DNA of 64,000 nucleotides, from positions 269,861-333,860 of the forward strand of contig CAZKBU010000002.1 of the NCBI GenBank assembly GCA_964551325.1, in the 5' to 3' direction. The stretch comes from an uncultured Bdellovibrionales bacterium. Its GTDB lineage: Bacteria; Bdellovibrionota; UBA1018; CAIPTA01. Made by a program: the position numbers and the translations under genes. Positions 10,321 to 60,505 of this stretch are shown in pieces (within the stretch, counting starts at the first letter, position 1; the number at the start of each line of letters is the position of its first letter). The notes under the pieces were generated by a model. That model had not been told where the DNA came from. It was given only the letters and a program-made list of their open reading frames with translations, and did not search any database.

Positions 10321-10327
10321 AAATTCG

Positions 10328-11338: not shown

Positions 11339-11405
11339 AACCCCTCCTAAAGGAATCCGAACGGTTCCTTGACCATCATCGAAAGCCACGGGTATACCAC
11401 CCCGC

Positions 11406-41375: not shown

Positions 41376-41460
41376 GCTAATCATTTCCTAATTTATTTCC
41401 GCTGTTTCTTTTCGTTCCGGTTTTGTTAGAAAAGTGCGAACTCTTCCACAGGAGATATCC

Positions 41461-42324: not shown

Positions 42325-42338
42325 TCGGACGCTGACTC

Positions 42339-43103
42339 ATGTCGATTATCGCGCGAGATCTTTCCAGAAGCTTCGACGGGGGTAAAACCTACGCCCTTAA
42401 AGATGTGAATCTGGAAATTCAACAGGGAGAGTTCATTGCCATCATCGGCCTGTCCGGTGCCGGCAAGAGCACGTTCCTTCGCGCGATCAACGGCACCAAT
42501 AACCCCGTGGAAGGTTCCCTGGAGGTCTTGGGCCACAAAGTCGAGACACTTCAGGGACGCGATCTCGTGAATCTTCGGAAGCAAGTCGGCTTCATCTTCC
42601 AACAGTTCAATTTGGTCAAAAGCCTTTCTGTACTTCAAAATGTTTTGGTCGGGCGCGTAGCCTACGCTCCTCTTTGGCGCACCCTTACGGGCCTCTACAG
42701 TGACGACGACAAGGCCATTGCCAAAAGTGCCTTAGATGCGGTCGGGCTCGACGGGCGCTACCACGAACGAGCCCGCAACTTGTCGGGCGGCCAACAGCAG
42801 CGCGTCGCTATCGCAAGAGCGCTTGTGCAAGAGCCCAAAATCATTCTTGCCGACGAACCGATGGCATCCCTTGATCCCAAGCTTTCTGAAGTCGTGATTG
42901 AGATGCTCTCCCGCATCAACGAAGAACGTCGAATTACCGTACTGGTTAATATTCATGTTCTCGAGCTCGCTAAGAAATATGCAAAGCGGATGATCGCCTT
43001 CCGAAAAGGGAAAGTGGTCTTTGACGGCCCGCCCTCCGACCTTACTGACGAACGGATTGAGGAGATCTATCAGGTCGACAAAAAAATGTTCGATCAGATG
43101 TGA
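42339..43103 (+). CDS. phnC: Phosphonate ABC transporter ATP-binding protein
   Basis: 254 aa. Walker A 'GLSGAGKST', signature 'LSGGQQQRVAIAR', Walker B 'ILADEP'. Confidence 0.85.
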   Translation: MSIIARDLSRSFDGGKTYALKDVNLEIQQGEFIAIIGLSGAGKSTFLRAINGTNNPVEGSLEVLGHKVETLQGRDLVNLRKQVGFIFQQFNLVKSLSVLQNVLVGRVAYAPLWRTLTGLYSDDDKAIAKSALDAVGLDGRYHERARNLSGGQQQRVAIARALVQEPKIILADEPMASLDPKLSEVVIEMLSRINEERRITVLVNIHVLELAKKYAKRMIAFRKGKVVFDGPPSDLTDERIEEIYQVDKKMFDQM

Positions 43104-43924
43104 GTTTTGACGCCATGACCACTACTAAGCTCAAGCCAGTTTCTCTTCCTCCTCCGAAGCCTTTCACTTGGCGCACCGCGGTTTGGTACTGCGTGTTGGC
43201 GTTTATTTTTGCCCTCACCTGGTGGTGCGCTACGGCAGTTGAGTTTTCCATGTCGAAACTGATCGAAGGCGGGCCCTACATGGCCGACTTCCTCAAAAGG
43301 ATGTGGCCACCGGATCTGACGATTATTGACCGAGTGTTTACGGACACACTCCTCACCATTCAACTAGCCTGGGTTTCCACTGTAATCGCCGTTTTCCTCT
43401 CCCTTCCTGTCGGTTTTCTGGCTGCGTCCAATATCTTTGAAAATAAAGCGATCCGCGCCGTAACGATTTTCTTTCTGAATGCCGACCGCGCGATCGACTC
43501 TTTGATTCTTGCTCTATTCTTTGTGAGCGCCGTAGGTCTAGGACCATTTCCCGGAACTCTCGCATTGGCCATCCATTCCATAGGTATGCTCGGCAAGCTT
43601 TTTGCCGACGCAATTGAGGCCATCGATCGAGGACCGCTGGAAGCGCTCGAAAGCGCCGGCGCCAATAAGCTTGAAGTGATTCGCTGGGCCGTGTGGCCTC
43701 AGGTAGCACCTCACTTTATCAGCTTTTTCTTGTTCCGATTTGAGCTCAATGTTCGCGTTGCCGTTGTGCTCGGCCTCGTGGGCGCTGGCGGAATTGGATT
43801 CCTTCTCACGAGCTATATGCGCCTATTCCAGTACCAAAAGGTAGCCACCGTGGTGCTCGTGATTCTGGCGCTTGTGATGGTGGTCGACTACTTCTCCTCT
43901 AAGCTCCGTAGATCTGTTCTCTGA
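43100..43924 (+). CDS. phnE: Phosphonate ABC transporter permease
   Basis: 274 aa, 6 TM. EAA-like loop 'EAIDRGPLEALESAGANKLEVIRW'. ATGA overlap with phnC. Confidence 0.8.
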   Translation: MSFDAMTTTKLKPVSLPPPKPFTWRTAVWYCVLAFIFALTWWCATAVEFSMSKLIEGGPYMADFLKRMWPPDLTIIDRVFTDTLLTIQLAWVSTVIAVFLSLPVGFLAASNIFENKAIRAVTIFFLNADRAIDSLILALFFVSAVGLGPFPGTLALAIHSIGMLGKLFADAIEAIDRGPLEALESAGANKLEVIRWAVWPQVAPHFISFFLFRFELNVRVAVVLGLVGAGGIGFLLTSYMRLFQYQKVATVVLVILALVMVVDYFSSKLRRSVL

Positions 43925-46911: not shown

Positions 46912-48852
46912 TCAGTGAAGCAGGGCGCCGATTCTGTAAGCCAAAAAAGCACCCACATAGGCCAACGCAAACATGTAGGCCCACATTAGAAGCGGGATCT
47001 TCCAAGAATTGGTTTCTCGAATGGCTACACCTATCGTGCTCACGCATTGAAGGGAGAAAGCGAAAAACACCAGCAACGAAAGACAGGTACCCAGATGGTA
47101 AAGAGGCGTGCCGTCAGGTTTCTTTGCGGAAAGAAGGGTAGAAGAAAGGCTCTCGGTGTTCTCTTCGGTCGCGCCCAGAGCGAAGATCGTTCCAAGGGTC
47201 GACACAAAAACTTCTCGGGCAGCCTGGGCTGAAATCACCCCGATCGTAAGCTTCCAATCATAACCGATCGGCGCGAACACGGGCTCGAGCGCGTGCCCGA
47301 TTCGCCCACCGAAGCTGTGCTCAAGAAGAGCGGCCGCTTTTTCATTTTCCAAACGAAGTCTGTCGACATCGGAAATCGACGACTCAATGCGGGAGTCGAA
47401 TTCAGCTGCAAGCTCCTTATGCTGGGGGAATGAGAGCACAAACCACAGCAACATCGACATCCCGGCGATTACCGTACCGGCTTTCTTCAAAAAAACCGCA
47501 ACCCGCATCCACACAAAACGCAGGAGCGAAATCCAGTCAGGAGTCCGATAATGAGGAAGATGAATGATCTCCACGGTAGGGCGGGAACTTTCTAATCCCA
47601 AGCGATGCATCAGCAGCGCCACACCAAGAGCCGCCACCACACCGAGCATATACATTCCGAACATCACAAGGCCCTGAAGACTGAGCCCGGCAACCCGTGT
47701 GGAAGGGATAAAAGTACCGATCAGCAGCGTATAGACCGGCAACCGTGCGGAACAGGTCATTAAGGGCGCGATCATGATGGTGATCAATCGGGTGCGGTGA
47801 TTCTCGATCGTTCGCGTCGCCATGATTCCCGGAACCGCGCACGCCACGGAGCTCAGAAGCGGAATAAAAACTTTTCCGTCGAGCCCCCAAGGCTTCATCA
47901 GACGATCCACGAGGAACGCGATCCTGGGAAGGTAGCCGCTGTATTCGAGAAGCCCGATCAAAAAGAACAAAATCGCGATCGGAGGCAAAAACACCACCAC
48001 TGATCCCACGCCGGCGAGAATCCCATCGGCGATCAGCGACGCTCCCAGCTCCCAGGTGAAATGATTTTTTACAAAATCACCGAGCCCACCCAACCAAGTC
48101 TCCAAAAGATCCGACACTGGCGCCGCCCACGTAAACACACTCTGAAACACTACGAACATCACAGCAAAGAAGAAAATCGGCGAAAGAAATGGGTGCAAGA
48201 CCCAACGATCGATCTGTTGGTCACGAAGGAGGAGAGCGTTGGCGTTTCCGGGTGGGTTCACGCCGGAAACTCTTAGCCCTTCGCGCCGAGCATTTTGAAA
48301 GAGCTGTTCCACGTCGTGGTTCGAGAGACCTTGTATCGGTTCAGGTTGTGCTGCAGCCGCCCTCACGCGGGATAAATGTTTTTTCAGAGACTCCACGCCC
48401 TCGCCGGTGCGGGCCGACACCCCAAAAAATGGGATCCCCGCTAACTCTGTCATGCCCGCCAAATTGAGAATCCTTTTGTTGGCAGCCACTTCGTCGATCA
48501 TGTTCACGGCAACGGTGAGAGAAAATCCCTTCTCCCTCAGCATCATGGGAAGAGTGAGCTCCTGCTCCAAGTTGTTGCCATCGACAACCACCACAACATG
48601 ACCGCGGCCTCGCGATTCTTCTAAATGTCGAAGAGCCACCTGCTCGTCGAGGGTATTGGGTTTAAATGAATAAAGGCCCGGCAGGTCCGTGAAGTCGAGA
48701 GTGACTCCATCTTCTGTTACGATCTCGGCAGTCTTCTTCTCGACCGTAACGCCAGCGTAGTTTCCCACCTTCTGGTTGGCTCCGGCGATGCGATTGAATA
48801 GGGTGCTTTTTCCGGAATTAGGGCGCCCTGCCAAGATAATCTCAAAGCTCAC
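46912..48852 (-). CDS. feoB: Ferrous iron transport protein B
   Basis: 646 aa. N-terminal G-domain 'LAGRPNSGKSTLFN', 'DLPGLYS', then a polytopic membrane domain with FeoB gate motifs. Confidence 0.9.
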   Translation of the reverse strand: MSFEIILAGRPNSGKSTLFNRIAGANQKVGNYAGVTVEKKTAEIVTEDGVTLDFTDLPGLYSFKPNTLDEQVALRHLEESRGRGHVVVVVDGNNLEQELTLPMMLREKGFSLTVAVNMIDEVAANKRILNLAGMTELAGIPFFGVSARTGEGVESLKKHLSRVRAAAAQPEPIQGLSNHDVEQLFQNARREGLRVSGVNPPGNANALLLRDQQIDRWVLHPFLSPIFFFAVMFVVFQSVFTWAAPVSDLLETWLGGLGDFVKNHFTWELGASLIADGILAGVGSVVVFLPPIAILFFLIGLLEYSGYLPRIAFLVDRLMKPWGLDGKVFIPLLSSVACAVPGIMATRTIENHRTRLITIMIAPLMTCSARLPVYTLLIGTFIPSTRVAGLSLQGLVMFGMYMLGVVAALGVALLMHRLGLESSRPTVEIIHLPHYRTPDWISLLRFVWMRVAVFLKKAGTVIAGMSMLLWFVLSFPQHKELAAEFDSRIESSISDVDRLRLENEKAAALLEHSFGGRIGHALEPVFAPIGYDWKLTIGVISAQAAREVFVSTLGTIFALGATEENTESLSSTLLSAKKPDGTPLYHLGTCLSLLVFFAFSLQCVSTIGVAIRETNSWKIPLLMWAYMFALAYVGAFLAYRIGALLH

Positions 48853-49121: not shown

Positions 49122-49631
49122 CTAGCGTTTCCTTGGCTTCTTGGAGTGAGACTTCTTGCCCTCTCGCCGAAAATCCCAAGGAGGCGTGGGCTCCTTGTCG
49201 GCCCAAAGCCCCAGTTTTGCCGCTCTCGCCCGTTCCTCGGCTTGCAGATAGGGAACCCTGTCGCCCTCCGGTAGATCTTTGGCAAAAAACCGATAGTGCC
49301 AAGCCATACCCGCCTCGAGAACGGCAAGGTTCACGTCTTTCCCTGCTTTTACTATTTTCCCTAGGATACGCCCATAACGGTCCCGTTTAGAGAACTCTAC
49401 TTTAACCTGCTGCCCAAAAACTTGGTCCGATAGGAACTGCTTGGCTTTGGCACCAAAAGCCTGCTTTTTTTCGGGTGCATCGATCCCTTGGAGACGAATC
49501 TTTTCTTCCCGTTTTTCCGCCGTAAGAATCTTCACCGTATCGCCGTCGCTCACCCCTACCACCTTACCTTCCAGAACATCAGCTACGGCGGGGCTCGACA
49601 GAATCAAGGCAATCAGAAGAAATTTCATCAT
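49122..49631 (-). CDS. Secreted thermonuclease (staphylococcal-nuclease-like, SNase fold)
   Basis: 169 aa. Signal peptide 'MMKFLLIALILSSPAVA'. 'VVGVSDGDTVKIL...IRLQGIDAPE' Ca-binding/catalytic motif, 'NLAVLEAGMAW'. Confidence 0.75.
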   Translation of the reverse strand: MMKFLLIALILSSPAVADVLEGKVVGVSDGDTVKILTAEKREEKIRLQGIDAPEKKQAFGAKAKQFLSDQVFGQQVKVEFSKRDRYGRILGKIVKAGKDVNLAVLEAGMAWHYRFFAKDLPEGDRVPYLQAEERARAAKLGLWADKEPTPPWDFRREGKKSHSKKPRKR

Positions 49632-49659: not shown

Positions 49660-50649
49660 ATGAAAACAATCCAAACCTCTCTTACCGATCTCCTCGGAAT
49701 CCAATATCCCATCATTGCGGGCCCCATGTTCTTAGTGAGTGACGAGGAACTGGTGGCCTCAGTTAGTAATGCGGGCGGCCTCGGAGCCATGCCCTCCCTG
49801 AATTGGCGCAGCAACGATCAATTTCGTGACGCATTAAAGCGGGTACGCGAGCGCACGCAAAAACCTTTCGGCGTGAACATTATCGTGAATAAAGCCAACC
49901 CGCGGGTGACTTCCGACCTCACCGCCTGCGCAGAGGCCAAGGTACCGCTCGTGATCACATCCCTGGGAAGCCCGAAAGATGTGATTCGCGAAATGCATGC
50001 GGCGGGTGGAAAGGTTTTCTGTGACGTCACAACCCTAGAGTACGCCAAAAAAGTCCAAGACCTTGGAGCCGACGGGGTGATCGCCGTGAGCCAGGGCGCG
50101 GGCGGCCACGCCGGTCCGATTTCACCCTTGGTACTGGTCCCCTATCTCCGCAAACATCTTTCCATTCCGGTGATCCAGGCCGGCGGCGTTGCTACGGGCC
50201 GCCAAATGGCAGCATCCCTTCTTTTGGGAGCCTCAGGCGTCCAGATCGGCACTCGTTTTATCGCTACCCGTGAAGCCAAGGTCGACGAGAAGTATAAGCA
50301 GGCAATTCTGAACTCCGAACCGGAAGATATTGTGTTGACGCTAAAAATTTCTGGAACCCCAGCAGCGGTGATCAACACCCCATATATTCAGAAACAGGGG
50401 CTCGATCTGAATCCCTTAGAAAAATGGCTACTTAAGAATGAGCACACAAAGAAGACCATGAAGCTCGTTCGCAGCGTCTTGGGCGCAAAAGCACTTGAAA
50501 AAGCAGCCTCCACAACCACTTGGAAGGAAGTTTGGAGTGCAGGTCAGGGTGTGGGCCTGATCGAAGACATTGCTCCAGCCAGCGAGGTAATTGAAAGATT
50601 AGTGCAGGAATTTGAAGCAGCGAAAGCCGATTTCTGCCGAAGCGTCTGA
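49660..50649 (+). CDS. Nitronate monooxygenase / FabK-like FMN-dependent oxidoreductase (NMO family)
   Basis: 329 aa. 'IIAGPMFLVSDEELVASVSNAGGLG' TIM-barrel FMN motif and 'GADGVIAVSQGAGGHAG'. Confidence 0.8.
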   Translation: MKTIQTSLTDLLGIQYPIIAGPMFLVSDEELVASVSNAGGLGAMPSLNWRSNDQFRDALKRVRERTQKPFGVNIIVNKANPRVTSDLTACAEAKVPLVITSLGSPKDVIREMHAAGGKVFCDVTTLEYAKKVQDLGADGVIAVSQGAGGHAGPISPLVLVPYLRKHLSIPVIQAGGVATGRQMAASLLLGASGVQIGTRFIATREAKVDEKYKQAILNSEPEDIVLTLKISGTPAAVINTPYIQKQGLDLNPLEKWLLKNEHTKKTMKLVRSVLGAKALEKAASTTTWKEVWSAGQGVGLIEDIAPASEVIERLVQEFEAAKADFCRSV

Positions 50650-50662
50650 CAAACTTAGCCGG

Positions 50663-51493
50663 TCAACGTCGAAGATTTCTGTCCATCAGGGCATCCAGCC
50701 AACGATCCGGCAGCCATCCCACAATGCGCATTTGAAGCGCCAACCCACGCGCCCCCACCACATACCGAGTGCGCGGAACGCGCGCCGTGAGAGCCGCAAG
50801 AATCACACGAGCCACCCGGTCAACGGGGGCGGCACCTCGGGAGGTGCGCTCCACATCGAGTTCCACCGCTTCCAGATCTTTCCCGTAAACTTCCTCTAAG
50901 TCTTTCGACAGCTTTGGCTTCGCTTGCACACTCTTTTCCCAAATCGGAGTAATGGTGGGGCCAGGTTCCACCACCACCACTTGGCACCCGAATTGCCCGA
51001 TTTCACGGCGTAGAGCATCTGACAATGCTTCCACCGCAAATTTTGAAGCACTGTAGGGGCCAAGGTATGGGGTGGTTGCGAGCCCACTCACGGAGCTCAC
51101 GTTTAGTACCCTGCCTTTTGTGCGCCTTACCCAAGGAAGCATTGCTTGAGTGACTCGAACAAGGCCGAAAAGATTCACCTCAAATTGTTCTTTCCACTTG
51201 CCGAGATCAACACCTTCGACGGGCCCGCCCACGGCGATACCCGCATTATTCACAAGATGGACGACATCAGCCGCTTCCAATCGATGGCGAATCGACGCGA
51301 CGGCCGTTCTCACGCTTTCGTCACTGGTTACATCCAAGACAACCGGCTCCACACCTCTCACGTCTGCCCAGGCAACCGCATCAGAAACCTTACGAACCCC
51401 AGCCAAAACATGGAACCCACTAGAAGCAAGCAACCGTGCTGCGGCCATCCCAATCCCGCTTGAAGCACCCGTTACAAGAACAATATTTTTCAT
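50663..51493 (-). CDS. SDR-family oxidoreductase
   Basis: 276 aa. 'VLVTGASSGIGMAAAR', 'NNAGIAV', catalytic 'YSASKFAV'. Confidence 0.8.
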   Translation of the reverse strand: MKNIVLVTGASSGIGMAAARLLASSGFHVLAGVRKVSDAVAWADVRGVEPVVLDVTSDESVRTAVASIRHRLEAADVVHLVNNAGIAVGGPVEGVDLGKWKEQFEVNLFGLVRVTQAMLPWVRRTKGRVLNVSSVSGLATTPYLGPYSASKFAVEALSDALRREIGQFGCQVVVVEPGPTITPIWEKSVQAKPKLSKDLEEVYGKDLEAVELDVERTSRGAAPVDRVARVILAALTARVPRTRYVVGARGLALQMRIVGWLPDRWLDALMDRNLRR

Positions 51494-51497
51494 TGGC

Positions 51498-52274
51498 TCA
51501 GATCTCCACCGCCTCGCCCGGGGCCGGCGACCACACTTTTACTCCTGGGAGACCATTTCGCAAATCCAATAGATTGATCTGGGGAAGCTCAAACTGCTCA
51601 CGCCACGGCCGATGAGCCTCAAAAGCAAGTAACTGCTTTGCGCCGCTTGCCAACACCAGTCTTGGCAAGTCGTGAGCGTCCTCCGGCTCCACGGCCGCAA
51701 GAAGAACATCGACCGTTTCTTTTCCCATAGCGGCCTGAAGACAGGCACCTGTAGTGCGCCGATGCAATCCCTCACCGAAGTAAACGACCCGACCCGGCCC
51801 GGATACTCGATAACCCAACATGGGCGCATGACGCGGCCCCGACAACCCATGAGCACCAATCTTTGCCAAACGTACCGGATGGCGAAGCAATCGTCCCAGG
51901 TAAGTTCTTTTTTCTCTCCAACTGGCAGGCAACAAGGACATGTGCTCCCAACCAAATACATTCACACTCCAATCGTGCAAGGTCAGGCTGGACCCCGAGT
52001 TCACGGGAATGAACGAATCGGCAGGATTACTCGATCGAGCTTTCAAATATTTGCAAACCGAAGTGGAACCCAAAACCGAAATTCCGTGCTTACGACAGCT
52101 CTGAAGATGCGACGCGATGCCCTCTACATGCTCCGGATGCCCATGAGTGATAAAAACTACCTTTTTCTGGTCGCTAAGAGTTGAGCCGGGAGCGGGGTCA
52201 AAATACAGAGGAATACACCCTGGAGCCGCCAGCACACATCCCGACCATCCTTGATACGTCACTCTCAGGTTCAT
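51498..52274 (-). CDS. MBL-fold metallo-hydrolase
   Basis: 258 aa. 'VVFITHGHPEHVEG' is an HxHxEH variant of the HxHxDH zinc motif. Confidence 0.7.
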   Translation of the reverse strand: MNLRVTYQGWSGCVLAAPGCIPLYFDPAPGSTLSDQKKVVFITHGHPEHVEGIASHLQSCRKHGISVLGSTSVCKYLKARSSNPADSFIPVNSGSSLTLHDWSVNVFGWEHMSLLPASWREKRTYLGRLLRHPVRLAKIGAHGLSGPRHAPMLGYRVSGPGRVVYFGEGLHRRTTGACLQAAMGKETVDVLLAAVEPEDAHDLPRLVLASGAKQLLAFEAHRPWREQFELPQINLLDLRNGLPGVKVWSPAPGEAVEI

Positions 52275-52276
52275 TC

Positions 52277-53713
52277 TTAACCTGCCAATCCGCCGCCATG
52301 ACTGAGCACTTGCGGGGTCACTTCACATGGAATGTCGAGATGAGCCCTCTGATAGGCCCGGAAATTTTTCCAAACTCCCCACAACACCTTAAAAATGTGT
52401 GGCCGAAAGAGCATGCCGGGGCGGTGGAAAAGAAGGTGCTTGATCACCCGGAACACTGAGCGCCCGCTAAACTCCATCTGCAGGCGATAAAGATCCCGCG
52501 GCGGAAGCTTGGTGGGCAAAACAAAATGCTGCAGGTCAAAAAGCGCCGGATCATGAGTAAGAAGATCCTTCCTGATTTGCCGATAGAGAGGTGTCCCAGG
52601 AAACGGAGTTAAAGGGGTGTATTCGGTAAGTAGAATCGATGGCCGCTGACGCACATACCGGTCGATCTTTTCAAAATCTTCCCGCGTAAATGAAGGCTCC
52701 ACCAGAAATCCAGCGCTGAGATAGAACCCTAGCTCCTCGGCGATTCTTATCGCCTCTTCATTTACAGTCGCACTTGTACCCTTTCCTGCCCGCTTGAGCG
52801 CCGCTTCATCAATGGCCTCCAATCCCGACATCACCAGGAAAAGGCCGGCTTTTGCCCAAAGCGCATACACGTCCCTGTGATTCACAATCGAATCCGTACG
52901 TGCATAGACGAAGTAACGCTTCTTCACCCCACCATCGATCAGCATCTGCGCGAGCGTTCTCATCCGATCCGCGTCTATGAACGAATGATCGTCGCAAAAG
53001 ACAACAAAATCTTCTTTCAAGGATCGAATTTCCTCATACATCAGCTCGGGGGAGCGAGGAATAAAGCGCCCTTTGGAATACACCCTCACGGAACAAAAAG
53101 TGCAGTGAGAGGTGCATCCGAACGAAGTACGCACCGCCGCCACGGACGGCTCAAAAAGGTAATAGTAACGACCCCGATATCGGGCCGTAAGACTCCGATC
53201 TGGAATCGGATAGGCGTTCATGTCGTGAGGCAGCGGTCGCGGCGTAGTGAAACTCACGGTTCCGTTGGATTGAGGAATGGCCAGACCTTGGATCGCCAGG
53301 TAGTCAGAGTCCCCTCTCGCGCGGGCGTCGCAGATCTCACGGAAGGTCTCCACTCCCTCTCCAATTACAATTAAGTTCACTGCAGGATCGGAAAAATCCT
53401 CTGGCCTCATGGTCGCATGATGCCCACCCACGACCGTAAAGCACTCTGGATAACGCCGCCTCACAGTCCGTAACGCATCGAGAGCCGTGGATCGGTGCAC
53501 AATCTCCGAGGTAACCCCAACGATATCAGGCATAAACTCTTGAAGAGCTTCCTCCAGATCGTTCGGCTCCACCTCCATATCAACCAGGCGCACCTCATGC
53601 AGCCCCTTCACGCTTGCGCCAATCATCTCAAGACCGAGCGGTTCGAGCTTGGCAATGTGCCTAAGCCCGATCGTTTTGGAGTCGCAGGCTGGATTGATTA
53701 AAAGAATGCGCAT
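52277..53713 (-). CDS. B12-binding-domain radical SAM protein
   Basis: 478 aa. N-terminal cobalamin-binding Rossmann ('MRILLINPACD...LGLEMIGASV'), radical SAM cluster motif 'CTSHCTFC' (Cx3Cx2C). Stop/start spacing of 2-4 bp to the downstream MBL and SDR genes. Confidence 0.85.
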   Translation of the reverse strand: MRILLINPACDSKTIGLRHIAKLEPLGLEMIGASVKGLHEVRLVDMEVEPNDLEEALQEFMPDIVGVTSEIVHRSTALDALRTVRRRYPECFTVVGGHHATMRPEDFSDPAVNLIVIGEGVETFREICDARARGDSDYLAIQGLAIPQSNGTVSFTTPRPLPHDMNAYPIPDRSLTARYRGRYYYLFEPSVAAVRTSFGCTSHCTFCSVRVYSKGRFIPRSPELMYEEIRSLKEDFVVFCDDHSFIDADRMRTLAQMLIDGGVKKRYFVYARTDSIVNHRDVYALWAKAGLFLVMSGLEAIDEAALKRAGKGTSATVNEEAIRIAEELGFYLSAGFLVEPSFTREDFEKIDRYVRQRPSILLTEYTPLTPFPGTPLYRQIRKDLLTHDPALFDLQHFVLPTKLPPRDLYRLQMEFSGRSVFRVIKHLLFHRPGMLFRPHIFKVLWGVWKNFRAYQRAHLDIPCEVTPQVLSHGGGLAG

Positions 53714-53850
53714 CGAGCCCCCCGGAAAGCCCCAACGAAATAAAATGATCCGGGTAAGATGAGGGGGAAGCGCCCTTAGGGGATATGATCTGAATCATAG
53801 GGAAGGTGGCGCCACTCCGCCCTCACAAATCTAAACGCGTGGTGCCGACC

Positions 53851-53889
53851 AAAAAACAAAACCGGCGCCAGGATCTCTCCTCGCGCCGG
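53851..53889 (-). terminator. Candidate Rho-independent terminator for the SWIB gene
   Basis: CCGGCGC / GCGCCGG 7-bp stem with a 14-nt loop. On the transcribed (minus) strand it is followed by TTTTGTTTTTT. Confidence 0.45.
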
Positions 53890-53913: not shown

Positions 53914-54240
53914 TTACGAGAGGTGCTTAGCCACCAGTTTCGTCATTTCGAACATGTTCACGGTAGCCTTACCACCGAACACAGCCTTCAGCTTAGCATC
54001 GGCGTGAATGTTACGACGTTGCTTAGGGTCCTGGAGCTTGTTCTTCTTGATGTACGCCCAGAGCTTCTTGGTCACTTCCGTACGAGGAAGCGGCTTGGCG
54101 CCTACTACAGCAGCGAGGCTGGCGCTCGGGGTGAGAGCCTTCATGAAAGCAGCATTCGGCTTGCGCTTCGTCTTAGCCTTCTTGGTAGCCTTCTTAGTGG
54201 TTTTAGCTTTCTTAGCAGTTTTCTTGGTCTTCTTTGCCAT
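53914..54240 (-). CDS. SWIB/MDM2-domain protein with N-terminal lysine-rich histone-H1-like tail
   Basis: 108 aa. N-terminal 'AKKTKKTAKKAKTTKKATKKAKTKRK' followed by 'MKALTPSASLAAVVGAKPLPRTEVTKKLWAYIKKNKLQDPKQRRNIHADAKLKAVFGGKATVNMFEMTKLVAKHL', which matches the SWIB/MDM2 fold consensus. Confidence 0.75.
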   Translation of the reverse strand: MAKKTKKTAKKAKTTKKATKKAKTKRKPNAAFMKALTPSASLAAVVGAKPLPRTEVTKKLWAYIKKNKLQDPKQRRNIHADAKLKAVFGGKATVNMFEMTKLVAKHLS

Positions 54241-54402: not shown

Positions 54403-56739
54403 TCAAAGACCAGAAACAGCCTTCTGCCATAGGGAGTTGATCCATGAAGATCCGCCACCAGAGCCTTCTCCCGGCCGCTTGAGATCCAAATTTGCTAGGC
54501 GATCCAATCGTCGGAACTCCTCATACACACAAACCCGCTCGCGGAAAGGCTTTCCCTTCAGGCGCTCCTCCAAAACTTGAAAGGAGAGCGAAAGTCCAGC
54601 CTCTGGAGACACCACCTTTGATCCACGACAGATCCCAACATCCACCTCGCTCGGCCACTCCTGCCCCGTGATCAACGCTAGAATGCACAGTTTTCCGAGG
54701 CTCTCCCGATTCGGCGCCTGTGGACCACCCTCTGCTGGCTCTCCCGACTCGTCGGCTGCCTTCTTAAGCCCCTGGAGCACCGTCCCCAGCGCGGGCGCTG
54801 AGAACCGACGGAACTGAAGCAGCGTCGCCTGAGAAATCGTCTGGGCCTGGGATAAATCCTGCCTCACGTCGAGCGGAGTGAGGTGTGCTCGCTCCAAAAG
54901 AAGTTGGAGATCTGATCCCGCCAAGCGATAGAGGTCGTCGATCTCCCGAGGCCCCTCCCCTCGCAGGTATCGGGTAGTGATATCGGTGGTAACGAGCCCA
55001 GTCAGGACCGACGGCAAGTAAACGTTGTTATTCTCCAAGCGAAAAGCCTCAAAGGTCTTGGAGACCACCCGAGCAGCCGGGGACTCCCTATAGCACTTAT
55101 GAGGCTCATCCTTGCCTCCGGCGTTTGGCGGACAAGGCACTTCTTCCGGCTGATCAGATACAGCCTTTGGGTGAATGAGGTCGCCATAAACTCCGGTCAC
55201 ACGACTTCGAACCTGGTCCACGAGAATTCGATCCCTCTCTCCGTCTGCCCCGGGCCCAAAGGCGTAGTTCGTGAGGAACTCAAACAAGCGTTCCATCGCC
55301 CGGGAAGGCGATCGTTTATCCACGCCGGAGCGGGTGAAATCCCGAACCAACGACGACAAGTCCACATTCACCTTCTCGTTGAATTCCCGCACAACAGCCA
55401 GGTAGCGCCTCGCCCATAGAGCATTGAAGTTCTCCACAAAACCCTGGAGATCCGCTCCTGAAGATATCGATACTGCCGACACCAGGCGATCCGGGTCTCC
55501 GTTAAAATCGCCCGGAGGGGTCTTCTCGGGCCCCGCAACGACCTTCACGAAGTCCATCACGGACTCAAATCCGGAAAATGCCCCGCCGCTGGCCTGCCAG
55601 CCGGTTCCATGATTGTAGTAAAACACCCGAAACAGGTCGCGAAGGAATCGGCGAACCAGGTCAGCCTGGTCGTTCACATTTCTCACCCGATCTACATCAC
55701 TCCGGGTGCTCGCCATTAAACCGTCAGCCGCCCGTCTTTGGTTTTGGCTCTGGGTGAGCTTACTGAACTGCTTGTTGATTCTCTCGGCTTGCTCGGAGTC
55801 CACGGGAGCCCCGCCCCCGTTCACCACACGATCGAGCCAACCGTAGAGCACAGGCAGGTGCCGATCCATCAGCTCCACTCCGTAGAAGAACGGCAAAACC
55901 TCCCCCTTCGGTTCGCGAATAGCCACGTCCACAAGGGTGCGCGCATCCTTGGCCCTGCAATAGTCGCGACTCATTGCCTCCAATCCACAGGTGAATGCCG
56001 CCCCCAGCCGAGCACGCTTGGATTCAATAATCTCCTTGGTGAGGGGAATCTGGGACGTCATCTCCACGCCGAGTCGAAGCAGGTCCGACACCACGGAAGC
56101 GCCCAGGCCCACGGCTGGCGAGGCAAAGCTCCCGGCCAGCTCCGCAATGCCTGCCGCAACCTGAACGGCCACTTGCGGGTTGTCCTTATAACAATCCGTA
56201 AGCTGGTGAGAGGCCGATAAGAGGTCTCGAAGGTGCTGGCTTACTCCGCTCATCCCCCAGGAGAAATTGCTCTTATAACTCGCCTGACGGAGGTAGGAAG
56301 CGTCAGCTCTCGCCAACGACAGCTCGTAACGAGTCCCCGCATAATACGACAAGAGCGCATCCTTAACGCTCGGATCGATACCCGGCTGTCCAATCGCGAG
56401 CAGTAGATCATTTCCTGCCTCGTCGAATCGACGCTCCTTACGGCGCGCGCTGTCGGCCTCTAGTGCTCTAAGCTCGGCGCGCAGGCGCAAAGAAGCGCCC
56501 TGGGCATTCATTAATGCGGGTGAAGTGGAGCAACTCTTCTTCTCCTTCAAGGATTCCAGAAGCTGCGTAAGGCTCTCCGATCGCTCCAAGGCGGCCCGAG
56601 TCCAAGGACCAAGACTACACCCCTGGGAGTAGGCAGCGATCATCTGATCTACTACCGGTACGGCTTCCTGCTCTGGCGCATTGCAAGAAAAGAGAGAAAA
56701 AGGGGTGATTACCAAAAGAAGAAATCGTGTCAGTTTCAT
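54403..56739 (-). CDS. Large lipoprotein of unknown function
   Basis: 778 aa. Lipobox 'FSLFSC'. No recognisable catalytic motif. Last gene of the minus-strand secreted-protein run. Confidence 0.5.
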   Translation of the reverse strand: MKLTRFLLLVITPFSLFSCNAPEQEAVPVVDQMIAAYSQGCSLGPWTRAALERSESLTQLLESLKEKKSCSTSPALMNAQGASLRLRAELRALEADSARRKERRFDEAGNDLLLAIGQPGIDPSVKDALLSYYAGTRYELSLARADASYLRQASYKSNFSWGMSGVSQHLRDLLSASHQLTDCYKDNPQVAVQVAAGIAELAGSFASPAVGLGASVVSDLLRLGVEMTSQIPLTKEIIESKRARLGAAFTCGLEAMSRDYCRAKDARTLVDVAIREPKGEVLPFFYGVELMDRHLPVLYGWLDRVVNGGGAPVDSEQAERINKQFSKLTQSQNQRRAADGLMASTRSDVDRVRNVNDQADLVRRFLRDLFRVFYYNHGTGWQASGGAFSGFESVMDFVKVVAGPEKTPPGDFNGDPDRLVSAVSISSGADLQGFVENFNALWARRYLAVVREFNEKVNVDLSSLVRDFTRSGVDKRSPSRAMERLFEFLTNYAFGPGADGERDRILVDQVRSRVTGVYGDLIHPKAVSDQPEEVPCPPNAGGKDEPHKCYRESPAARVVSKTFEAFRLENNNVYLPSVLTGLVTTDITTRYLRGEGPREIDDLYRLAGSDLQLLLERAHLTPLDVRQDLSQAQTISQATLLQFRRFSAPALGTVLQGLKKAADESGEPAEGGPQAPNRESLGKLCILALITGQEWPSEVDVGICRGSKVVSPEAGLSLSFQVLEERLKGKPFRERVCVYEEFRRLDRLANLDLKRPGEGSGGGSSWINSLWQKAVSGL

Positions 56740-56808
56740 AGGAGACTGAGCCTAATGAACGCCCAGAATGGGAGCAAACAGTTTCAGCCAAATTTCGAGA
56801 ATAACAAC

Positions 56809-57420
56809 TCAGTGCCGGATACGGAAAGCCCCTTGCACCTGCACTCGACGCGGCCCCATGTCGAGCCGCTTAACAACACGCAGCTCCCACTCGGTGTCGA
56901 GCTCCACCACGAACAAGCGAGCGTCGTCGTAGAACCGAAGCATCTCTGCCAGTGACTGATCCGAAAACGAAAGGCCATCCTGCTTGTTCACAAGAGGGGT
57001 GGTTCCGTCGAAACTAAACTGGTAATTGCGCTGAACGGAACTCTCTCCGCGAGCGTCTTTTCTCCAACTAACTGGCCCCGACACTTCAATGCCCCATATG
57101 TCTCTTGGCCCTAGGTTCGTGCACGGAAATCGACCATTCACATAATGAAAGTTCGCAGTGCGCCGACGATCCTGGATCGTCACCAAAAATTCCTCAGAAG
57201 TTACCTGATAGGCACCATCCTTAAGCTCGGCGAGGCCCCCTGGTAGCAACTTCCCGGGATCGGTCCGGAACTGGAGGGGATCATACCCCGCGGGGCACTC
57301 CTTCACGGTCCGCTGCGCTTTGCCCTGATTCCCGGCCTTTTCACTCGCGAACGGATCAATTTTATCCTGCCCCGTGCCGCAGCCCACAAGAACCATTGTT
57401 AAAAAAATCCAAGTCCGCAT
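56809..57420 (-). CDS. Lipoprotein of unknown function
   Basis: 203 aa. Lipobox 'LVGCG'. Confidence 0.5.
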   Translation of the reverse strand: MRTWIFLTMVLVGCGTGQDKIDPFASEKAGNQGKAQRTVKECPAGYDPLQFRTDPGKLLPGGLAELKDGAYQVTSEEFLVTIQDRRRTANFHYVNGRFPCTNLGPRDIWGIEVSGPVSWRKDARGESSVQRNYQFSFDGTTPLVNKQDGLSFSDQSLAEMLRFYDDARLFVVELDTEWELRVVKRLDMGPRRVQVQGAFRIRH

Positions 57421-57430
57421 TGCTGCCTCC

Positions 57431-58582
57431 TCAGTAGGCCAGGCGCTTCAACTGAAAGAGCTCCACCTCAACATCTTGGGGCAGATTCGTTCCAGCGCTC
57501 CCGGTGAACCCATCCAGCGTAATCCGCTCCAAGGCAACATAGCAATCCCGGGCGATCTTCGTTTTCTTGAATTCCTGAATGCAGGTCCGGAGATACATAT
57601 CGTCGAACCGGAAGAAGAGGTTGTGATTAATACGGTTGTAGATCAGGCCAAGAAGATACAGTGCTTCGCCCTTTGCGGGAGATACTCCTGGAGTTTCAAG
57701 AAGTTTGTGTAGATACACCGAGGCGCGGAGACGGCGAATATGGAATCGCCGCTCAAAGTCCCCCATAAGTTCCATATCGTCACTCTTCAACAGTTTCTTA
57801 GCTGCCACGAGAAGCTCGGAGTCACTGGCGCCTGCGGCCATCGGCTTTTCCTTTTGCCAGGTCTTAAGGTCCTTCACCCAGGCGAGCAGGTCTTGTTGCA
57901 TGAACTGAGGAATCTCCTTAGCCCCGGAAATTTTTTCGAAAAACGCGGCGGCACCGGTAGGGTTCGGCTCCACGCGAGTATGGAGCACAGCTAAGTTCAA
58001 AAGAACTCTTCGAAGCCCCGATGCCCCGATCTTATTGCCGGGAAACCCTTGAGCAAGCGCTTCAAACGTCTTCTTCGCTTTCGAGAACTGCCGGGTGGCA
58101 AAGTAGAATTCCGCTTGCTCCATTTCCGAAGCCCCAGACACCTGGGAGTCGAGAAACAGCTCCGTGCTGCTTGAGCCCCTGCTGTGGCAGCTGATGCACA
58201 TCTGGAGCGAGCTTTGCAGCATATAGCGAGCAAAGTGTTTGTTGTTTTCCCGGAAAAATTCACTGGCCTGGCCCACATGGCCTTCGATCATCTGAAGGTT
58301 GGCACGCAGGGCGAGATCGTCCTGGAAAAGCTTTTTGTCTTTCTTCATTCCCGCGAGGTGGGCTGAAAGATTGCCGAGGGTGGCGGTAATTTTCCCTTCG
58401 TTGCTTTTGTCGAAAAATTGCGACTCGCTCACCAGATATTGTTCCAGTGCCCTCACGTCCTCCAAAAGGAGTCGCATCCCGGGTTTAGGATCGGGTTCTG
58501 CGCCAGCGATCAGAGAAATCAAAAGGGAAAAGATTACGGTGCCACGAATCATCGACGAAACCCTCCAAGCGGTTCCGTTCAA
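57431..58582 (-). CDS. Secreted helical protein with a single CxxCH motif (possible mono-heme c-type cytochrome-like / TPR-like protein)
   Basis: 383 aa. N-terminal signal-like 'MIRGTVIFSLLISLIAGA'. 'LQMCISCHSRG' contains the CxxCH heme c attachment motif. Confidence 0.4.
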   Translation of the reverse strand: MNGTAWRVSSMIRGTVIFSLLISLIAGAEPDPKPGMRLLLEDVRALEQYLVSESQFFDKSNEGKITATLGNLSAHLAGMKKDKKLFQDDLALRANLQMIEGHVGQASEFFRENNKHFARYMLQSSLQMCISCHSRGSSSTELFLDSQVSGASEMEQAEFYFATRQFSKAKKTFEALAQGFPGNKIGASGLRRVLLNLAVLHTRVEPNPTGAAAFFEKISGAKEIPQFMQQDLLAWVKDLKTWQKEKPMAAGASDSELLVAAKKLLKSDDMELMGDFERRFHIRRLRASVYLHKLLETPGVSPAKGEALYLLGLIYNRINHNLFFRFDDMYLRTCIQEFKKTKIARDCYVALERITLDGFTGSAGTNLPQDVEVELFQLKRLAY

Positions 58583-59091
58583 TTATTGGGTATTTTCTTC
58601 CAAACGTAAATGAGGGGATCGTCGCCCAGGCTCAAATGAATCTGAAGATCGCCCTCCTGGGACAAGGAAAACTCTGTCGACGAGGTGCGGCCAGCCTGCA
58701 TGTCGGGGTCGGCTCTGCAGTCGCGATGATTCTTTGGGTTCACCCAGGTGATCTTATCCACAATACGATTACCCTCGATCCGAAACTCACCCTTACGCTC
58801 ACAGAGGTCGTTTTCCCCTTCGTGCCACCACCAGAGACGGCTCTGCCCATCAGCGGTGAAGGAGTAGTGAAGTCGCAGGGTGGCTTCCGGAGGTTCCGGC
58901 ATCACGATCCCGCGAAAAACTTTCTTATAGAAAAACCAATGCCCCTCCACATTCGGGCTCACGCCTGGATCGGGAACATCCGCAAACTGGGGGCGCTGAG
59001 CCCCCATCAGAAAAATCGCTAACCCTGCCAGAAAAAGTGGCCGAAGCCGGTCAAATGCCGCCACCCACCAACCTCCAGCCACGCTCGGCAA
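58579..59091 (-). CDS. Hypothetical secreted protein
   Basis: 170 aa. Hydrophobic N-terminus. 4-bp overlap with the downstream gene and 41-bp overlap with the upstream protease ORF. Confidence 0.4.
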   Translation of the reverse strand: MPSVAGGWWVAAFDRLRPLFLAGLAIFLMGAQRPQFADVPDPGVSPNVEGHWFFYKKVFRGIVMPEPPEATLRLHYSFTADGQSRLWWWHEGENDLCERKGEFRIEGNRIVDKITWVNPKNHRDCRADPDMQAGRTSSTEFSLSQEGDLQIHLSLGDDPLIYVWKKIPNN

Positions 59092-60505
59092 GAATTCGCT
59101 GAACTTCTAGACCTTCCTCTGCCGTGCAGATCCCACTCATGGCACTGATCACGGCAGGAGCAAAGTCGTCGAACCGAGCTCCAGAGCCCAGCCGCACCAG
59201 CGTGCGGAAGGCGATTTTGTGAGCCTTTTCCGCGCCGATTTTTTCTCTCATGTCCCAAAAAGTAGCTCCGATGATCGTGCCATTCTTGTAAACACCCTTC
59301 GAGAAATCCTGGTAGGCCTTAAGCTCGTTCTTCAGCGTGCGGCGGAACGGAGCCTTCAGATAACTCACCTCTCCCATGTAGGGGTTGTTGAGAATAAATG
59401 CGGTAAAAAGATCGGCGAACCCCTCGTTGAAGGAGCCACCCTCTCCTTCCGACGGAAGGCCAGCATACACGTCGATCACTGCGTGAATAGTTTCGTGAAC
59501 CACGATCGACGGATCCTTGAGCATATCTCGATAGACCTGACCGTCCCCGGTGCCCAAGTAGATCTGCGCGTTATGGTAGAAGGCGTTGTTGCTTACGCCG
59601 TTCTCACCAATATGCGTCTTCACCTGAATGGGGCGATTGAGCTCAACACCGAGCTGGTTCTTCATCCAGCGCAAAGCGTTGTCCATGAAATAGTAAACCT
59701 GAACCATCTCAAACTGCGGCTGAGTGGGCTCGAAGTTAAAGATCAAATCCCGCGACCACACGTTCAGATTCAGCCCGCTCGTGATGGCGAGTTTGGCGCT
59801 ACTCAGGCTGCCATCGCCTACAAGGCCATACAGCGTCTGCTCTGAGAGATCGCTCGCCTTAGGTCCGCGAGGAAACACCCGTGCCCGACCATCGGCACCG
59901 TTCACACCGGTCAACCCCTGTTCGGTAACACGGCCTTTCGCGTCCACTTTTGCAAAATGAATGTTCTGTTCAAAGCGATCCAGATACTCCACCCGCCAAT
60001 AGGGATAGAACCCCCTGCTTCTCTCCCATCCAATCTCCACCCGTGGCGGAAAAATATAACTGGCACTGGCCATCGAACTCACTTGCTCTTGAGCCTTGCG
60101 AAGACCAAACGCACCGTTAGCATCCATCGCGGTAACTTCGGCGAGGAGATGGTCCGGAACATACTTCATCACTCCGCCGGTGCTGTAAACTGCCTGCCCG
60201 GAGGGGGAAAACACGGTTTGAATCCAAGTGGAATCGACTCGGGCAGGGCCCACATATTGAGCCGATCGCCCAACCACTTCTCCGGCACCGCGAAGAACCA
60301 TGTCCTTCATGGAGAGAAGACCAATGTTCACCTGATTGTCGGGGGTGTCGCCCTTCTGGCCCATCACCTTGACGGGCACATTCCTCGCACCATCGAAAGC
60401 CCGCCACGCCTTCGGCATCCAGCGGAACCGCTGAACTTCAGGAGCGCTTTCTCCCGCCGTAACAATTCCAGGAGCCAGTAAGATAAATGCCAAAAAAGTC
60501 TTCAT
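59051..60505 (-). CDS. Secreted zinc metalloprotease, thermolysin-like (M4-type HExxH...NExxxD)
   Basis: 484 aa. Signal peptide 'MKTFLAFILLAPGIVTA'. 'VVHETIHAV' (HExxH), with the third zinc ligand ~20 aa downstream in 'GGSFNEGFADLF' (compare thermolysin 'GGINEAISDIFG'). Confidence 0.6.
   Translation of the reverse strand: MKTFLAFILLAPGIVTAGESAPEVQRFRWMPKAWRAFDGARNVPVKVMGQKGDTPDNQVNIGLLSMKDMVLRGAGEVVGRSAQYVGPARVDSTWIQTVFSPSGQAVYSTGGVMKYVPDHLLAEVTAMDANGAFGLRKAQEQVSSMASASYIFPPRVEIGWERSRGFYPYWRVEYLDRFEQNIHFAKVDAKGRVTEQGLTGVNGADGRARVFPRGPKASDLSEQTLYGLVGDGSLSSAKLAITSGLNLNVWSRDLIFNFEPTQPQFEMVQVYYFMDNALRWMKNQLGVELNRPIQVKTHIGENGVSNNAFYHNAQIYLGTGDGQVYRDMLKDPSIVVHETIHAVIDVYAGLPSEGEGGSFNEGFADLFTAFILNNPYMGEVSYLKAPFRRTLKNELKAYQDFSKGVYKNGTIIGATFWDMREKIGAEKAHKIAFRTLVRLGSGARFDDFAPAVISAMSGICTAEEGLEVQRILAERGWRLVGGGI

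Follow-up and report, generated by a model that had tools for sequence, protein, structure and literature searches.

The stretch of DNA analysed here, in the following called the window, comprises 64,000 nucleotides of contig CAZKBU010000002.1 (positions 269,861 to 333,860) from an uncultured Bdellovibrionales bacterium and harbors, on its minus strand, three tightly packed genes encoding a radical S-adenosylmethionine (radical SAM) protein, a protein of the metallo-β-lactamase (MBL) fold and a classical short-chain dehydrogenase/reductase (SDR). An earlier note, made from the sequence alone, had described these genes as a minus-strand operon with spacers of 2-4 bp, and the listing of open reading frames (ORFs) indeed gives the same three ORFs, separated by 2 bp (radical SAM/MBL) and 4 bp (MBL/SDR). 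The gene directly upstream, coding for a SWIB/MDM2-domain protein, ends in a putative intrinsic terminator, a stem-loop (53889-53862) followed by UUUUGUUUUUU, with a minimum free energy of -26.8 kcal/mol and z = -3.2 compared to shuffled sequences. Since the SWIB gene appears to be terminated in this way, the three genes would form one separate transcription unit of their own (Table 1).

Table 1 Features of the three-gene operon and its immediate flanks (positions of the window)
Feature	Position	Strand	Remarks
NMO/FabK-like ORF, convergent	49660..50649	opposite to operon	stop 13 bp from SDR stop
Classical SDR gene	50663..51493	-	276 aa; third and last gene of the operon
MBL-fold gene	51498..52274	-	258 aa; second gene of the operon
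HGHPEH, MBL motif 2 with Glu for the usual Asp	52128..52145	-	MBL residues 44-49
Radical SAM gene	52277..53713	-	478 aa; first gene of the operon; class-B-type, uncharacterised family
CTSHCTFC (CxxxCxxC), predicted [4Fe-4S] cluster motif	53093..53116	-	residues 200-207; radical SAM core 196-353
B12-binding domain (Rossmann-like)	53333..53647	-	N-terminal residues 23-127 of the radical SAM protein; PF02310
14-bp perfect palindrome ATGATTCAGATCAT	53785..53798	-	candidate CRP/FNR-family site
Hairpin and U-run, intrinsic-terminator-like	53851..53889	-	ends the upstream SWIB gene
SWIB/MDM2-domain protein	53914..54240	-	108 aa; directly upstream of the operon

The first protein had been assigned to the class-B (cobalamin-binding) radical SAM enzymes on account of its CTSHCTFC motif. 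In agreement with this, Pfam detects both a B12-binding domain (PF02310, 65.9 bits, cutoff 32.1) and a Radical_SAM domain (PF04055, 55.5 bits, cutoff 29.5), the motif reads GCTSHCTFCS in context, and its cysteines C200, C204 and C207 are invariant in both family alignments made. The protein carries the domain hallmarks of class B, with the use of cobalamin itself being predicted. Among the NCBIfam models, HpnR (TIGR04367) gives the best score (220.4 bits vs. a cutoff of 650, residues 1-410 aligned), followed by BchE (TIGR02026; 145.9 bits vs. 481, full-length alignment), a C-methyltransferase of RiPPs (peptides made by ribosomes and modified after translation; 80 bits, cutoff 282) and HpnJ (69 bits, cutoff 578). 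As all 21 NCBIfam matches fall far below their cutoffs, membership in any of these characterised families was rejected, and a genuine annotated HpnR encoded on a Kozakia plasmid shares 30.7% (tblastn) or 27% (alignment) identity with the window protein. Neither a curated NCBIfam equivalog for the family nor, in full-text literature searches, a description of it or of the radical SAM/MBL pair was found. The radical SAM family is an uncharacterised one, distantly related to HpnR and BchE, which supports the unknown target given in the earlier note. At the structural level, the family profile reaches TokK, OxsB, CysS and AprD4 in the PDB with E values of 3e-13 to 2e-9, and the nearest fold to an AlphaFold2 (AF2) model of a fused homologue is that of AprD4 (E 4e-15, TMt 0.70), followed by OxsB (7e-15), TsrM, CysS, TokK and MgmA.

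An auxiliary Fe-S cluster was considered and discarded: C10, C91 and C128 are invariant in the first alignment but not kept in the Chloroflexota members, and C240, while conserved family-wide, is a single cysteine and makes no cluster motif. Plasmids yielded only HpnR and other homologues of ~30% identity. One of these, a different HpnR-like radical SAM protein on plasmid pCF011-89 of Clostridium sp. CF011 (locus L059, 6001-11701; 30% identical to the window protein), is surrounded by genes for an adenylate-forming enzyme, a carrier protein, a thioesterase and hotdog-fold proteins, a context which suggests that relatives of the clade act on carrier-tethered acyl substrates.

The second protein had been labelled an HxHxEH MBL-fold hydrolase, of which the fold and the HGHPEH motif stand, while the hydrolase label is an assumption, as fold relatives include di-iron oxygenases besides hydrolases. 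Pfam places the protein in Lactamase_B_2 (PF12706) with 31.4 bits, slightly over the cutoff of 27, and the motif is present as THGHPEH. An AF2 model built with 32 homologues reached a pLDDT (predicted local distance difference test) of 94.9 and a pTM (predicted TM-score) of 0.91, and Foldseek matched it with probability 1.00 and TM-scores of 0.62-0.71 to many MBL-fold structures. Hydrolases account for matches of 0.65-0.71 (arylsulfatase, the UPF0173 proteins TM_1162, 7e3w and Igni18, UlaG-like proteins, ElaC, NAPE-PLD and YhfI), whereas the di-iron hydroxylases CmlA and FrsH match more weakly. In 32 family members, D26, H44, G45, H46, H49, H111, E168, G169, R172, E196, P197, E198, D199, H221, W224 and R225 are invariant, and P47, E48 and H171 are conserved to at least 90%. 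These residues, in the order Asp, HxHxEH, His, Glu, ExED and His, are compatible with a full two-metal site whose motif 2 would have Glu in place of Asp; the putative assignment of motifs 4 and 5 follows from spacing only.

Although a single-sequence search of the PDB with the MBL protein gave no match, the family profile picks up UPF0173 hydrolases (E 3e-5), placing THGHPEH over THGH(F/G)DH and E48 over the motif-2 Asp. TM_1162 and Igni18 are the closest solved relatives and have motif 2 and the downstream His positions in common with the MBL partner, but the latter has HxHxEH instead of HxHxDH and two extra helices (residues 119-144), and its family is exclusively coupled or fused to a radical SAM protein. 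Together with a score of 20.3 bits vs. a cutoff of 144 for the UPF0173 model NF001911, this marks the protein, as judged from such profiles, as a distant offshoot of UPF0173 and not a member. The MBL family is very small: a HMMER search with its profile against 1.84 billion representatives returned 34 proteins at E <= 1e-30 and 69 at E <= 1e-10, and the next tier of matches is a different, stand-alone MBL in unrelated context. Wherever enough flanking sequence is present, the family was never found without its radical SAM partner.

How firmly the two proteins belong together was seen from their homologues. The radical SAM alignment, scanned against 185,579 species representatives, yielded 49 genome loci, and 44 loci came from metagenomes scanned with the MBL alignment (loci are numbered with the prefix L); de-duplication reduced 94 loci to 67 groups. 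An MBL homologue lies directly downstream of the radical SAM gene in nearly all genome loci, and the radical SAM gene lies immediately upstream of the MBL gene in every metagenome locus with enough upstream sequence. Altogether, the MBL gene is adjacent or fused in 65 of the 67 groups, spanning Bdellovibrionota, Myxococcota, Planctomycetota, Pseudomonadota and Chloroflexota; of the two exceptions, L048 is explained by a contig end, and L021 alone is truly without an MBL gene. The closest relative found, L107, has the same three-gene order with a radical SAM protein 75% identical to that of the window. Given this order and the adjacency or fusion in nearly all groups, the arrangement is not due to chance. 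Additionally, the two proteins are fused in a single ORF in L007 (Oligoflexia), L010 (Myxococcales), L055 and L067, and the seven fused proteins of the first search fall into at least three sequence groups whose nearest relatives are unfused. Apparent long fusions in the GC-rich loci L011, L032, L061, L064, L094 and L095 were not counted, since the matches lie in different ORFs (in L011, the long ORF is in a different frame from the radical SAM gene). In one Anaerolineae subgroup, a saccharopine-dehydrogenase-like gene, often together with a flavin reductase gene, is inserted between the two genes.

The radical SAM homologues, which are 46-75% identical, form a tight family. Its carriers belong to Bdellovibrionales, Oligoflexia, Bacteriovoracaceae, Myxococcota, Planctomycetota, Alpha-, Beta- and Gammaproteobacteria and Anaerolineae/Chloroflexota, and nearly all are metagenome-assembled genomes (MAGs), a cultured one being Kordiimonas lipolytica (CGMCC 1.15304). 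The reading as a three-gene operon is refined by these data: the conserved functional unit is the radical SAM protein plus its MBL partner, often fused, while the SDR does not belong to the core.

That the third gene encodes a classical SDR, as claimed before, is confirmed by the motifs TGASSGIG, NNAG, SSVSG and YSASK in its translation and by 152.8 bits to adh_short (PF00106). More specific models remain below their cutoffs, i.e. the 3-ketodihydrosphingosine reductase KdsR (NF049977) with 173.6 bits vs. 400 and the generic PRK06914 and PRK06182 with ~220 bits each. Orthologues of the window SDR stand in the operon of L107 (55% identical), L019 and L014 (38%) and L066, but the gene is missing from the close relatives L005, L056, L057 and L058 and from most other loci. 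What recurs is a position for some NAD(P) oxidoreductase, filled in 26 of the 67 groups: by extended SDRs in 15 (best models HpnA with 182 bits vs. a cutoff of 368, then OleD and SdmB), by saccharopine-dehydrogenase-like proteins in five, by classical SDRs in four, and by an IolM-like zinc-dependent alcohol dehydrogenase and a 3-hydroxyacyl-CoA dehydrogenase in one each. The window SDR is therefore a lineage-specific filler of a variable slot and not core, and such a slot suggests that the pathway passes through an alcohol or carbonyl intermediate. The convergent neighbour had been described as a FabK/NMO-like gene abutting the operon. It scores 199 bits to nitronate monooxygenase (NMO) and 221.8 bits to FabK (TIGR03151; cutoff 453), and it does abut the operon, but the linkage is not conserved, as no NMO/FabK-like homologue was found in any related locus examined.

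The physiological context of the pair emerges from the DNA upstream of it. In the window, 137 bp separate the SWIB terminator from the ATG of the radical SAM gene and hold the perfect palindrome ATGATTCAGATCAT, centred 79 bp upstream of this ATG and the sole exact ATGATN4ATCAT in the 64 kb, which we regard as a candidate binding site of a CRP/FNR-family regulator. The same variant, ATGATTAAGATCAT, precedes the Oligoflexia operon L007 by 44 bp. Canonical FNR/Dnr boxes, matching the consensus at 10/10 positions, lie upstream of the first gene of the operon in Kordiimonas (L026 and L034; TTGATCCAGATCAA), Burkholderiales (L017; TTGATCCACATCAA), Chloroflexota (L052; TTGATCTACATCAA) and L102 (TTGATCTAAATCAA). 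In Anaerolineae (L036-L040, L043 and L047), a conserved GTGAC-TTGA-GTCAC palindrome is found 100-220 bp upstream of the operon. A regulator of the CRP/FNR family likely binds there, the half-site being unlike the proteobacterial TTGAT. Overall, canonical palindromes of the form TTGATN4ATCAA or GTGACN4GTCAC are found upstream in many lineages. The perfect TTGATN4ATCAA occurs six times in 681 kb of loci, four of these inside the 320-bp upstream regions. Of 63 de-duplicated lineages, 19 have the core TGA[TC]N4[GA]TCA in the 320 bp upstream, compared to ~3 expected from the whole-locus rate (0.047 per 310 bp), an enrichment that is somewhat overstated because intergenic DNA is AT-richer than this background and has ~1.5-fold higher rates, so that ~5 would be expected. 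The metagenome loci display the same pattern, though many of them duplicate genome loci.

Genes for life with nitric oxide (NO) or at low oxygen form the second line of evidence. They occur within 8 kb of the pair in 17 of the 67 groups and comprise ScdA/RIC, NnrS, NorB, NsrR-like Rrf2 regulators, DUF2249, NapC/NirT and UbiT/U/V-like proteins. ScdA/RIC follows directly after the MBL gene in L009, L056, L062 and L063, and UbiT/UbiU/UbiV-like trios stand beside the pair in several alphaproteobacterial loci. In addition, oxygen-independent hydroxylases of two kinds share the operon in some lineages, a divergent U32 protein in L029, L068 and L090 and a CoxM/S/L-type molybdenum hydroxylase in L019. 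Thus, the genome-neighbourhood analysis across homologues that the earlier note had proposed provides, with these genes and the FNR-type sites, a physiological handle. The UbiU/UbiV/UbiT system, which performs oxygen-independent hydroxylation in ubiquinone biosynthesis, is under FNR/Anr control. The FNR-type sites upstream of the pair make a similar role as oxygen-independent substitute likely, even though its proteins are unrelated to those of the Ubi system. At the same time, Myxococcota, Planctomycetota and Chloroflexota use menaquinone and are not known to use ubiquinone; as they carry the pair, it is not simply a ubiquinone gene set.

On these grounds, the best overall explanation, which we hold with moderate confidence, is a two-component unit for C-H functionalization that serves at low oxygen or under NO and has an oxidoreductase as helper. 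Its core would be a two-component enzyme made of the cobalamin-domain radical SAM protein and a dedicated MBL metalloprotein, joined in one polypeptide in several lineages. Expression from its own promoter under a CRP/FNR-type regulator would take place at low oxygen or under NO stress; given such control, the pair would serve under these conditions by functionalizing an unactivated C-H bond independently of oxygen. In a first step, the radical SAM protein would abstract a hydrogen atom and, with cobalamin, either install a methyl group, for which HpnR is the precedent, or give a hydroxylated, oxidized or rearranged carbonyl or alcohol product, for which BchE, OxsB and AprD4 are the precedents. 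The NAD(P) oxidoreductase, in the window the SDR, would then interconvert alcohol and carbonyl, and the MBL partner would finally cleave the substrate or product by hydrolysis at an ester, thioester or phosphoester bond. The gene context weakly points to a cell molecule that is hydrophobic, acyl/CoA-linked, isoprenoid or quinone-like. Hints of this kind are HpnA/OleD/SdmB-like and 17β-hydroxysteroid dehydrogenase-like SDRs, genes for CoA ligase, enoyl-CoA hydratase and 3-hydroxyacyl-CoA dehydrogenase in or beside the operons of L016, L019, L068 and L090, genes for acyl-CoA dehydrogenase, CDP-alcohol phosphatidyltransferase and fatty acid desaturase within 6 kb in L056 and L057, and neighbouring UbiT lipid carriers. 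The role may be either biosynthetic tailoring or anaerobic catabolism.

Several points weigh against this explanation. The window palindrome matches the FNR consensus at only 8/10 positions, a scan for sigma-70-like promoters between 50400 and 54400 gave no match, and the palindrome enrichment, besides being overstated, stems from loci that are not phylogenetically independent. Apart from FeoB ~2 kb away, no NO/anoxia gene of the recurrent set is present in the 64-kb window, nor is any substrate-defining gene conserved across the related loci. Beside the pair, 41 of the 67 lineages show no oxidoreductase, which may mean that this step is dispensable or encoded elsewhere. Cobalamin binding is only predicted: AprD4, with a similar N-terminal domain, is not known to use cobalamin, and it is the best structural match. 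A fixed interdomain complex is unsupported by the AF2 model of the fused protein P0026 (pLDDT 87.8, pTM 0.70), in which a linker of 24 residues (444-467) is predicted to be disordered, and the role of the MBL partner could be non-hydrolytic.

The closest working analogies are AprD4 of apramycin biosynthesis (C3' deoxygenation) and OxsB of the oxetanocin A pathway, the best structural matches to the radical SAM fold. In both systems, a carbonyl is made and then reduced by an NAD(P)H-dependent reductase, AprD3 in the former case and an unidentified aldehyde reductase in the latter, and OxsB additionally needs OxsA, a metal-dependent phosphohydrolase. However, both systems serve antibiotic synthesis in single genera, OxsA has an HD domain and is no MBL, sequence similarity of OxsB and AprD4 is remote (profile E 1e-12 to 2e-9), and aminoglycoside or nucleoside genes do not occur here. 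The pair belongs to neither system.

A more specific version of our preferred explanation, which we rate as rather unlikely in its full extent, assumes a non-methylating, BchE-type enzyme that would oxidize or hydroxylate an unactivated carbon independently of oxygen. Used under FNR/NO control in many phyla, it would stand in for an oxygenase in lipid, quinone or aromatic-acid metabolism, with the MBL protein as integral catalytic partner. BchE is a cobalamin radical SAM enzyme which replaces the O2-dependent AcsF under anoxia and produces hydroxy and keto intermediates in vitro (bioRxiv 10.64898/2026.04.29.721654), and hence offers a precedent for the chemistry proposed. In contrast to BchE, no photosynthesis genes are found in the neighbourhoods examined, and the BchE paper mentions no lactamase-fold partner (bioRxiv 10.64898/2026.04.29.721654).

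Alternatively, the radical SAM protein might be an HpnR-type lipid C-methyltransferase acting on some membrane lipid, either a triterpenoid of the hopanoid or sterol-like kind or a different one, with SDR and MBL protein performing minor tailoring, a possibility we consider unlikely. HpnR is the best curated model, aligned over the full length, and has the same two-domain class-B architecture and a hydrophobic substrate; moreover, the extended SDR partners of many lineages resemble hopanoid-associated HpnA most and match the sterol demethylase SdmB as well. The statement of the earlier note that class-B enzymes usually methylate is true insofar as most characterised ones are methylases (PMC12931638), which likewise speaks for this alternative. 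In the present case, however, methylation is an assumption, as the nearest folds include the non-methylating AprD4 and OxsB. Score and identity to HpnR are far too low for membership, HpnR has a longer C-terminal tail, and the inspected hpnR locus of Kozakia is without an MBL gene within 4 kb. Neither cyclase nor hpn genes (shc, hpn) are among the scanned window ORFs, no hopanoid genes were seen near the pair, and such genes formed no recurrent neighbour cluster around the 49 genome loci. Furthermore, at least three fusions of an obligate partner speak for a role beyond accessory tailoring.

The same low probability applies to a catabolic module for the anaerobic (denitrifying or microaerobic) attack on a recalcitrant carboxylic acid in form of its CoA thioester. 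Here, the radical SAM protein would replace an oxygenase, the dehydrogenase would oxidize the newly formed alcohol and the MBL protein would act as thioesterase or hydrolase; MBL-fold thioesterases such as glyoxalase II are well established. Genes that fit this scheme are acyl/aryl-CoA ligases in the operons of L019 and L068, an aldehyde dehydrogenase after the operon in L068, an enoyl-CoA hydratase after it in L090 and a 3-hydroxyacyl-CoA dehydrogenase before it in L016. In L019, the CoA ligase and an SDR precede the radical SAM gene and a CoxM/S/L-type molybdenum hydroxylase is co-operonic, and in L056 an acyl-CoA dehydrogenase gene is found ~3 kb upstream. The sporadic distribution (49 of 185,579 species representatives), resembling horizontal transfer, and the FNR boxes with denitrification neighbours agree with such a module, too. 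Yet, many lineages including that of the window possess just two or three genes amid housekeeping neighbours and no CoA-metabolism genes, and a conserved transporter or regulator typical of catabolic islands is missing.

A very unlikely alternative concerns the MBL partner alone, which might work as a redox protein with a di-iron site, in the manner of flavodiiron proteins or the CmlA/FrsH hydroxylases, and either scavenge O2 or NO, so protecting the radical SAM cluster, or perform a second oxidative step. CmlA and FrsH do appear among the fold matches, the carboxylate-rich ligands E48, E168, E196, E198 and D199 fit iron, a flavin reductase gene directly precedes the MBL gene in Anaerolineae loci, and ScdA, which serves in iron-centre repair, recurs nearby along with NO genes. 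Nevertheless, both by fold and by profile the protein matches UPF0173-type and other MBL hydrolases best, no flavodoxin or FMN domain is attached, and an O2-dependent di-iron hydroxylase would contradict low-oxygen regulation. Finally, a part in a secondary-metabolite or RiPP cluster or in anti-phage defence can practically be dismissed: although antibiotic and RiPP pathways often include class-B radical SAM enzymes and a pqqA/pqqD/radical-SAM-SPASM trio lies beside the pair in one lineage (L058/L064), there is no conserved precursor peptide, nonribosomal peptide or polyketide synthase, transporter or immunity gene, in many lineages only housekeeping genes surround the pair, PADLOC gave no matches for the three operon proteins or their neighbours, and 46-75% identity between members from different phyla speaks for a single conserved function.

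Cobalamin-domain radical SAM enzymes perform C-H reactions that rank among the most difficult in biology, and for most of their families no function is known. Uncharacterised radical SAM families are very many. The present one offers unusually clear handles, namely an obligate metalloprotein partner that is repeatedly fused to it, an oxidoreductase slot, FNR-type sites with NO/anoxia neighbours as cues to its time of use and, in Kordiimonas lipolytica CGMCC 1.15304, a culturable carrier. It is a class-B-type radical SAM family set apart by an obligate, repeatedly fused MBL-fold partner and by putative FNR-type regulation; for any characterised class-B enzyme, no description of such a partner was found. 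Should it prove to be an oxygen-independent stand-in for an oxygenase, this would make a further pair of aerobic and anaerobic enzymes next to BchE/AcsF, HemN/HemF and UbiUV/UbiIHF. Likewise, if non-methylating, it would extend the short list of such B12 radical SAM reactions and represent a new functional class of cobalamin radical SAM enzymes, by which facultative bacteria could accomplish O2-requiring steps without O2. Even as a mere lipid methylase, it would be a candidate source of methylated lipids at low oxygen.

Some neighbours of the pair are confined to few lineages. In L029 (10228-12172), L068 (8776-10735) and L090 (8064-9963), all from Emcibacter-like lineages, a divergent U32-family protein, preceded by a protein of ~310 amino acids (312 in L029/L068), is encoded co-operonically after the MBL gene on the plus strand. 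The 312-aa protein, for which Pfam and NCBIfam gave no match, was considered as a UbiV homologue, which was rejected as BLASTP found no similarity; together, the two proteins may be a new U32-type pair for oxygen-independent hydroxylation. In L005, a Bdellovibrionales MAG, overlapping genes for a class II aldolase and an MtnA-like isomerase of the IF-2B family follow the MBL gene (10279-11963, plus strand), resembling the dihydroxyacetone phosphate shunt that salvages 5'-deoxyadenosine, a by-product of radical SAM enzymes. Methionine or 5'-deoxyadenosine salvage was not adopted as the role of the pair, as this linkage is seen in L005 only and probably reflects by-product salvage. In L058 (4215-5723, minus strand), and also in L064, a pqqA-like gene of 35 codons, a pqqD-like gene and a radical SAM/SPASM gene are found divergently beside the pair, followed in L058 by three DUF2249 genes, a sigma-54 activator and ScdA. 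A link to pyrroloquinoline quinone, whose PqqB has an MBL fold, was not adopted either, these pqqA/D/E-like genes lying beside the pair in that one lineage.

Regarding the remainder of the window, Pfam and NCBIfam scans of most large ORFs bear out the earlier claim that no precursor-peptide, sugar or isoprenoid genes are located near the operon, and Rfam found no B12 riboswitch or other RNA in the window. The other genes are of the housekeeping type, such as those for GlmS, GlmU, DnaB, RF3, MetG, Psd, FeoB and a phosphonate-type ATP-binding cassette (ABC) transporter, next to secreted proteins without assigned function. About 40 kb from the operon, an alpha-oxoamine synthase (2459-3814, plus strand) scores 287 bits to BioF and 258 bits to serine palmitoyltransferase, both below the cutoffs, and an acyl-CoA ligase and a FabH-like β-ketoacyl-acyl carrier protein synthase III are encoded at 8812-10320 and 10328-11407 on the minus strand; these genes could constitute a sphingolipid or other lipid locus. 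The transporter, of the phosphonate/phosphite type, occupies 41434-43924 (plus strand) with a PhnD-like binding protein, an ATPase and a permease. The ferrous-iron transporter FeoB (46912-48852, minus strand), ~2 kb from the operon, is the sole window gene that we link to anoxia, and a staphylococcal-nuclease-like secreted protein is encoded at 49122-49631. On the other side of the operon, the SWIB protein has a lysine-rich N-terminal tail and matches the SWIB tails of topoisomerase fusion proteins. Further along the window come a run of four co-directional minus-strand genes (54403-59091; 778, 203, 383 and 170 aa) without Pfam or NCBIfam match, several of their products having signal-peptide-like N-termini, and an M4 (thermolysin-like) peptidase gene at 59051-60505; together, these may represent a secreted or predatory protein set. 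At 90% identity, the window MetG falls into one cluster with a protein from a MAG named 'Bdellovibrionales bacterium'.

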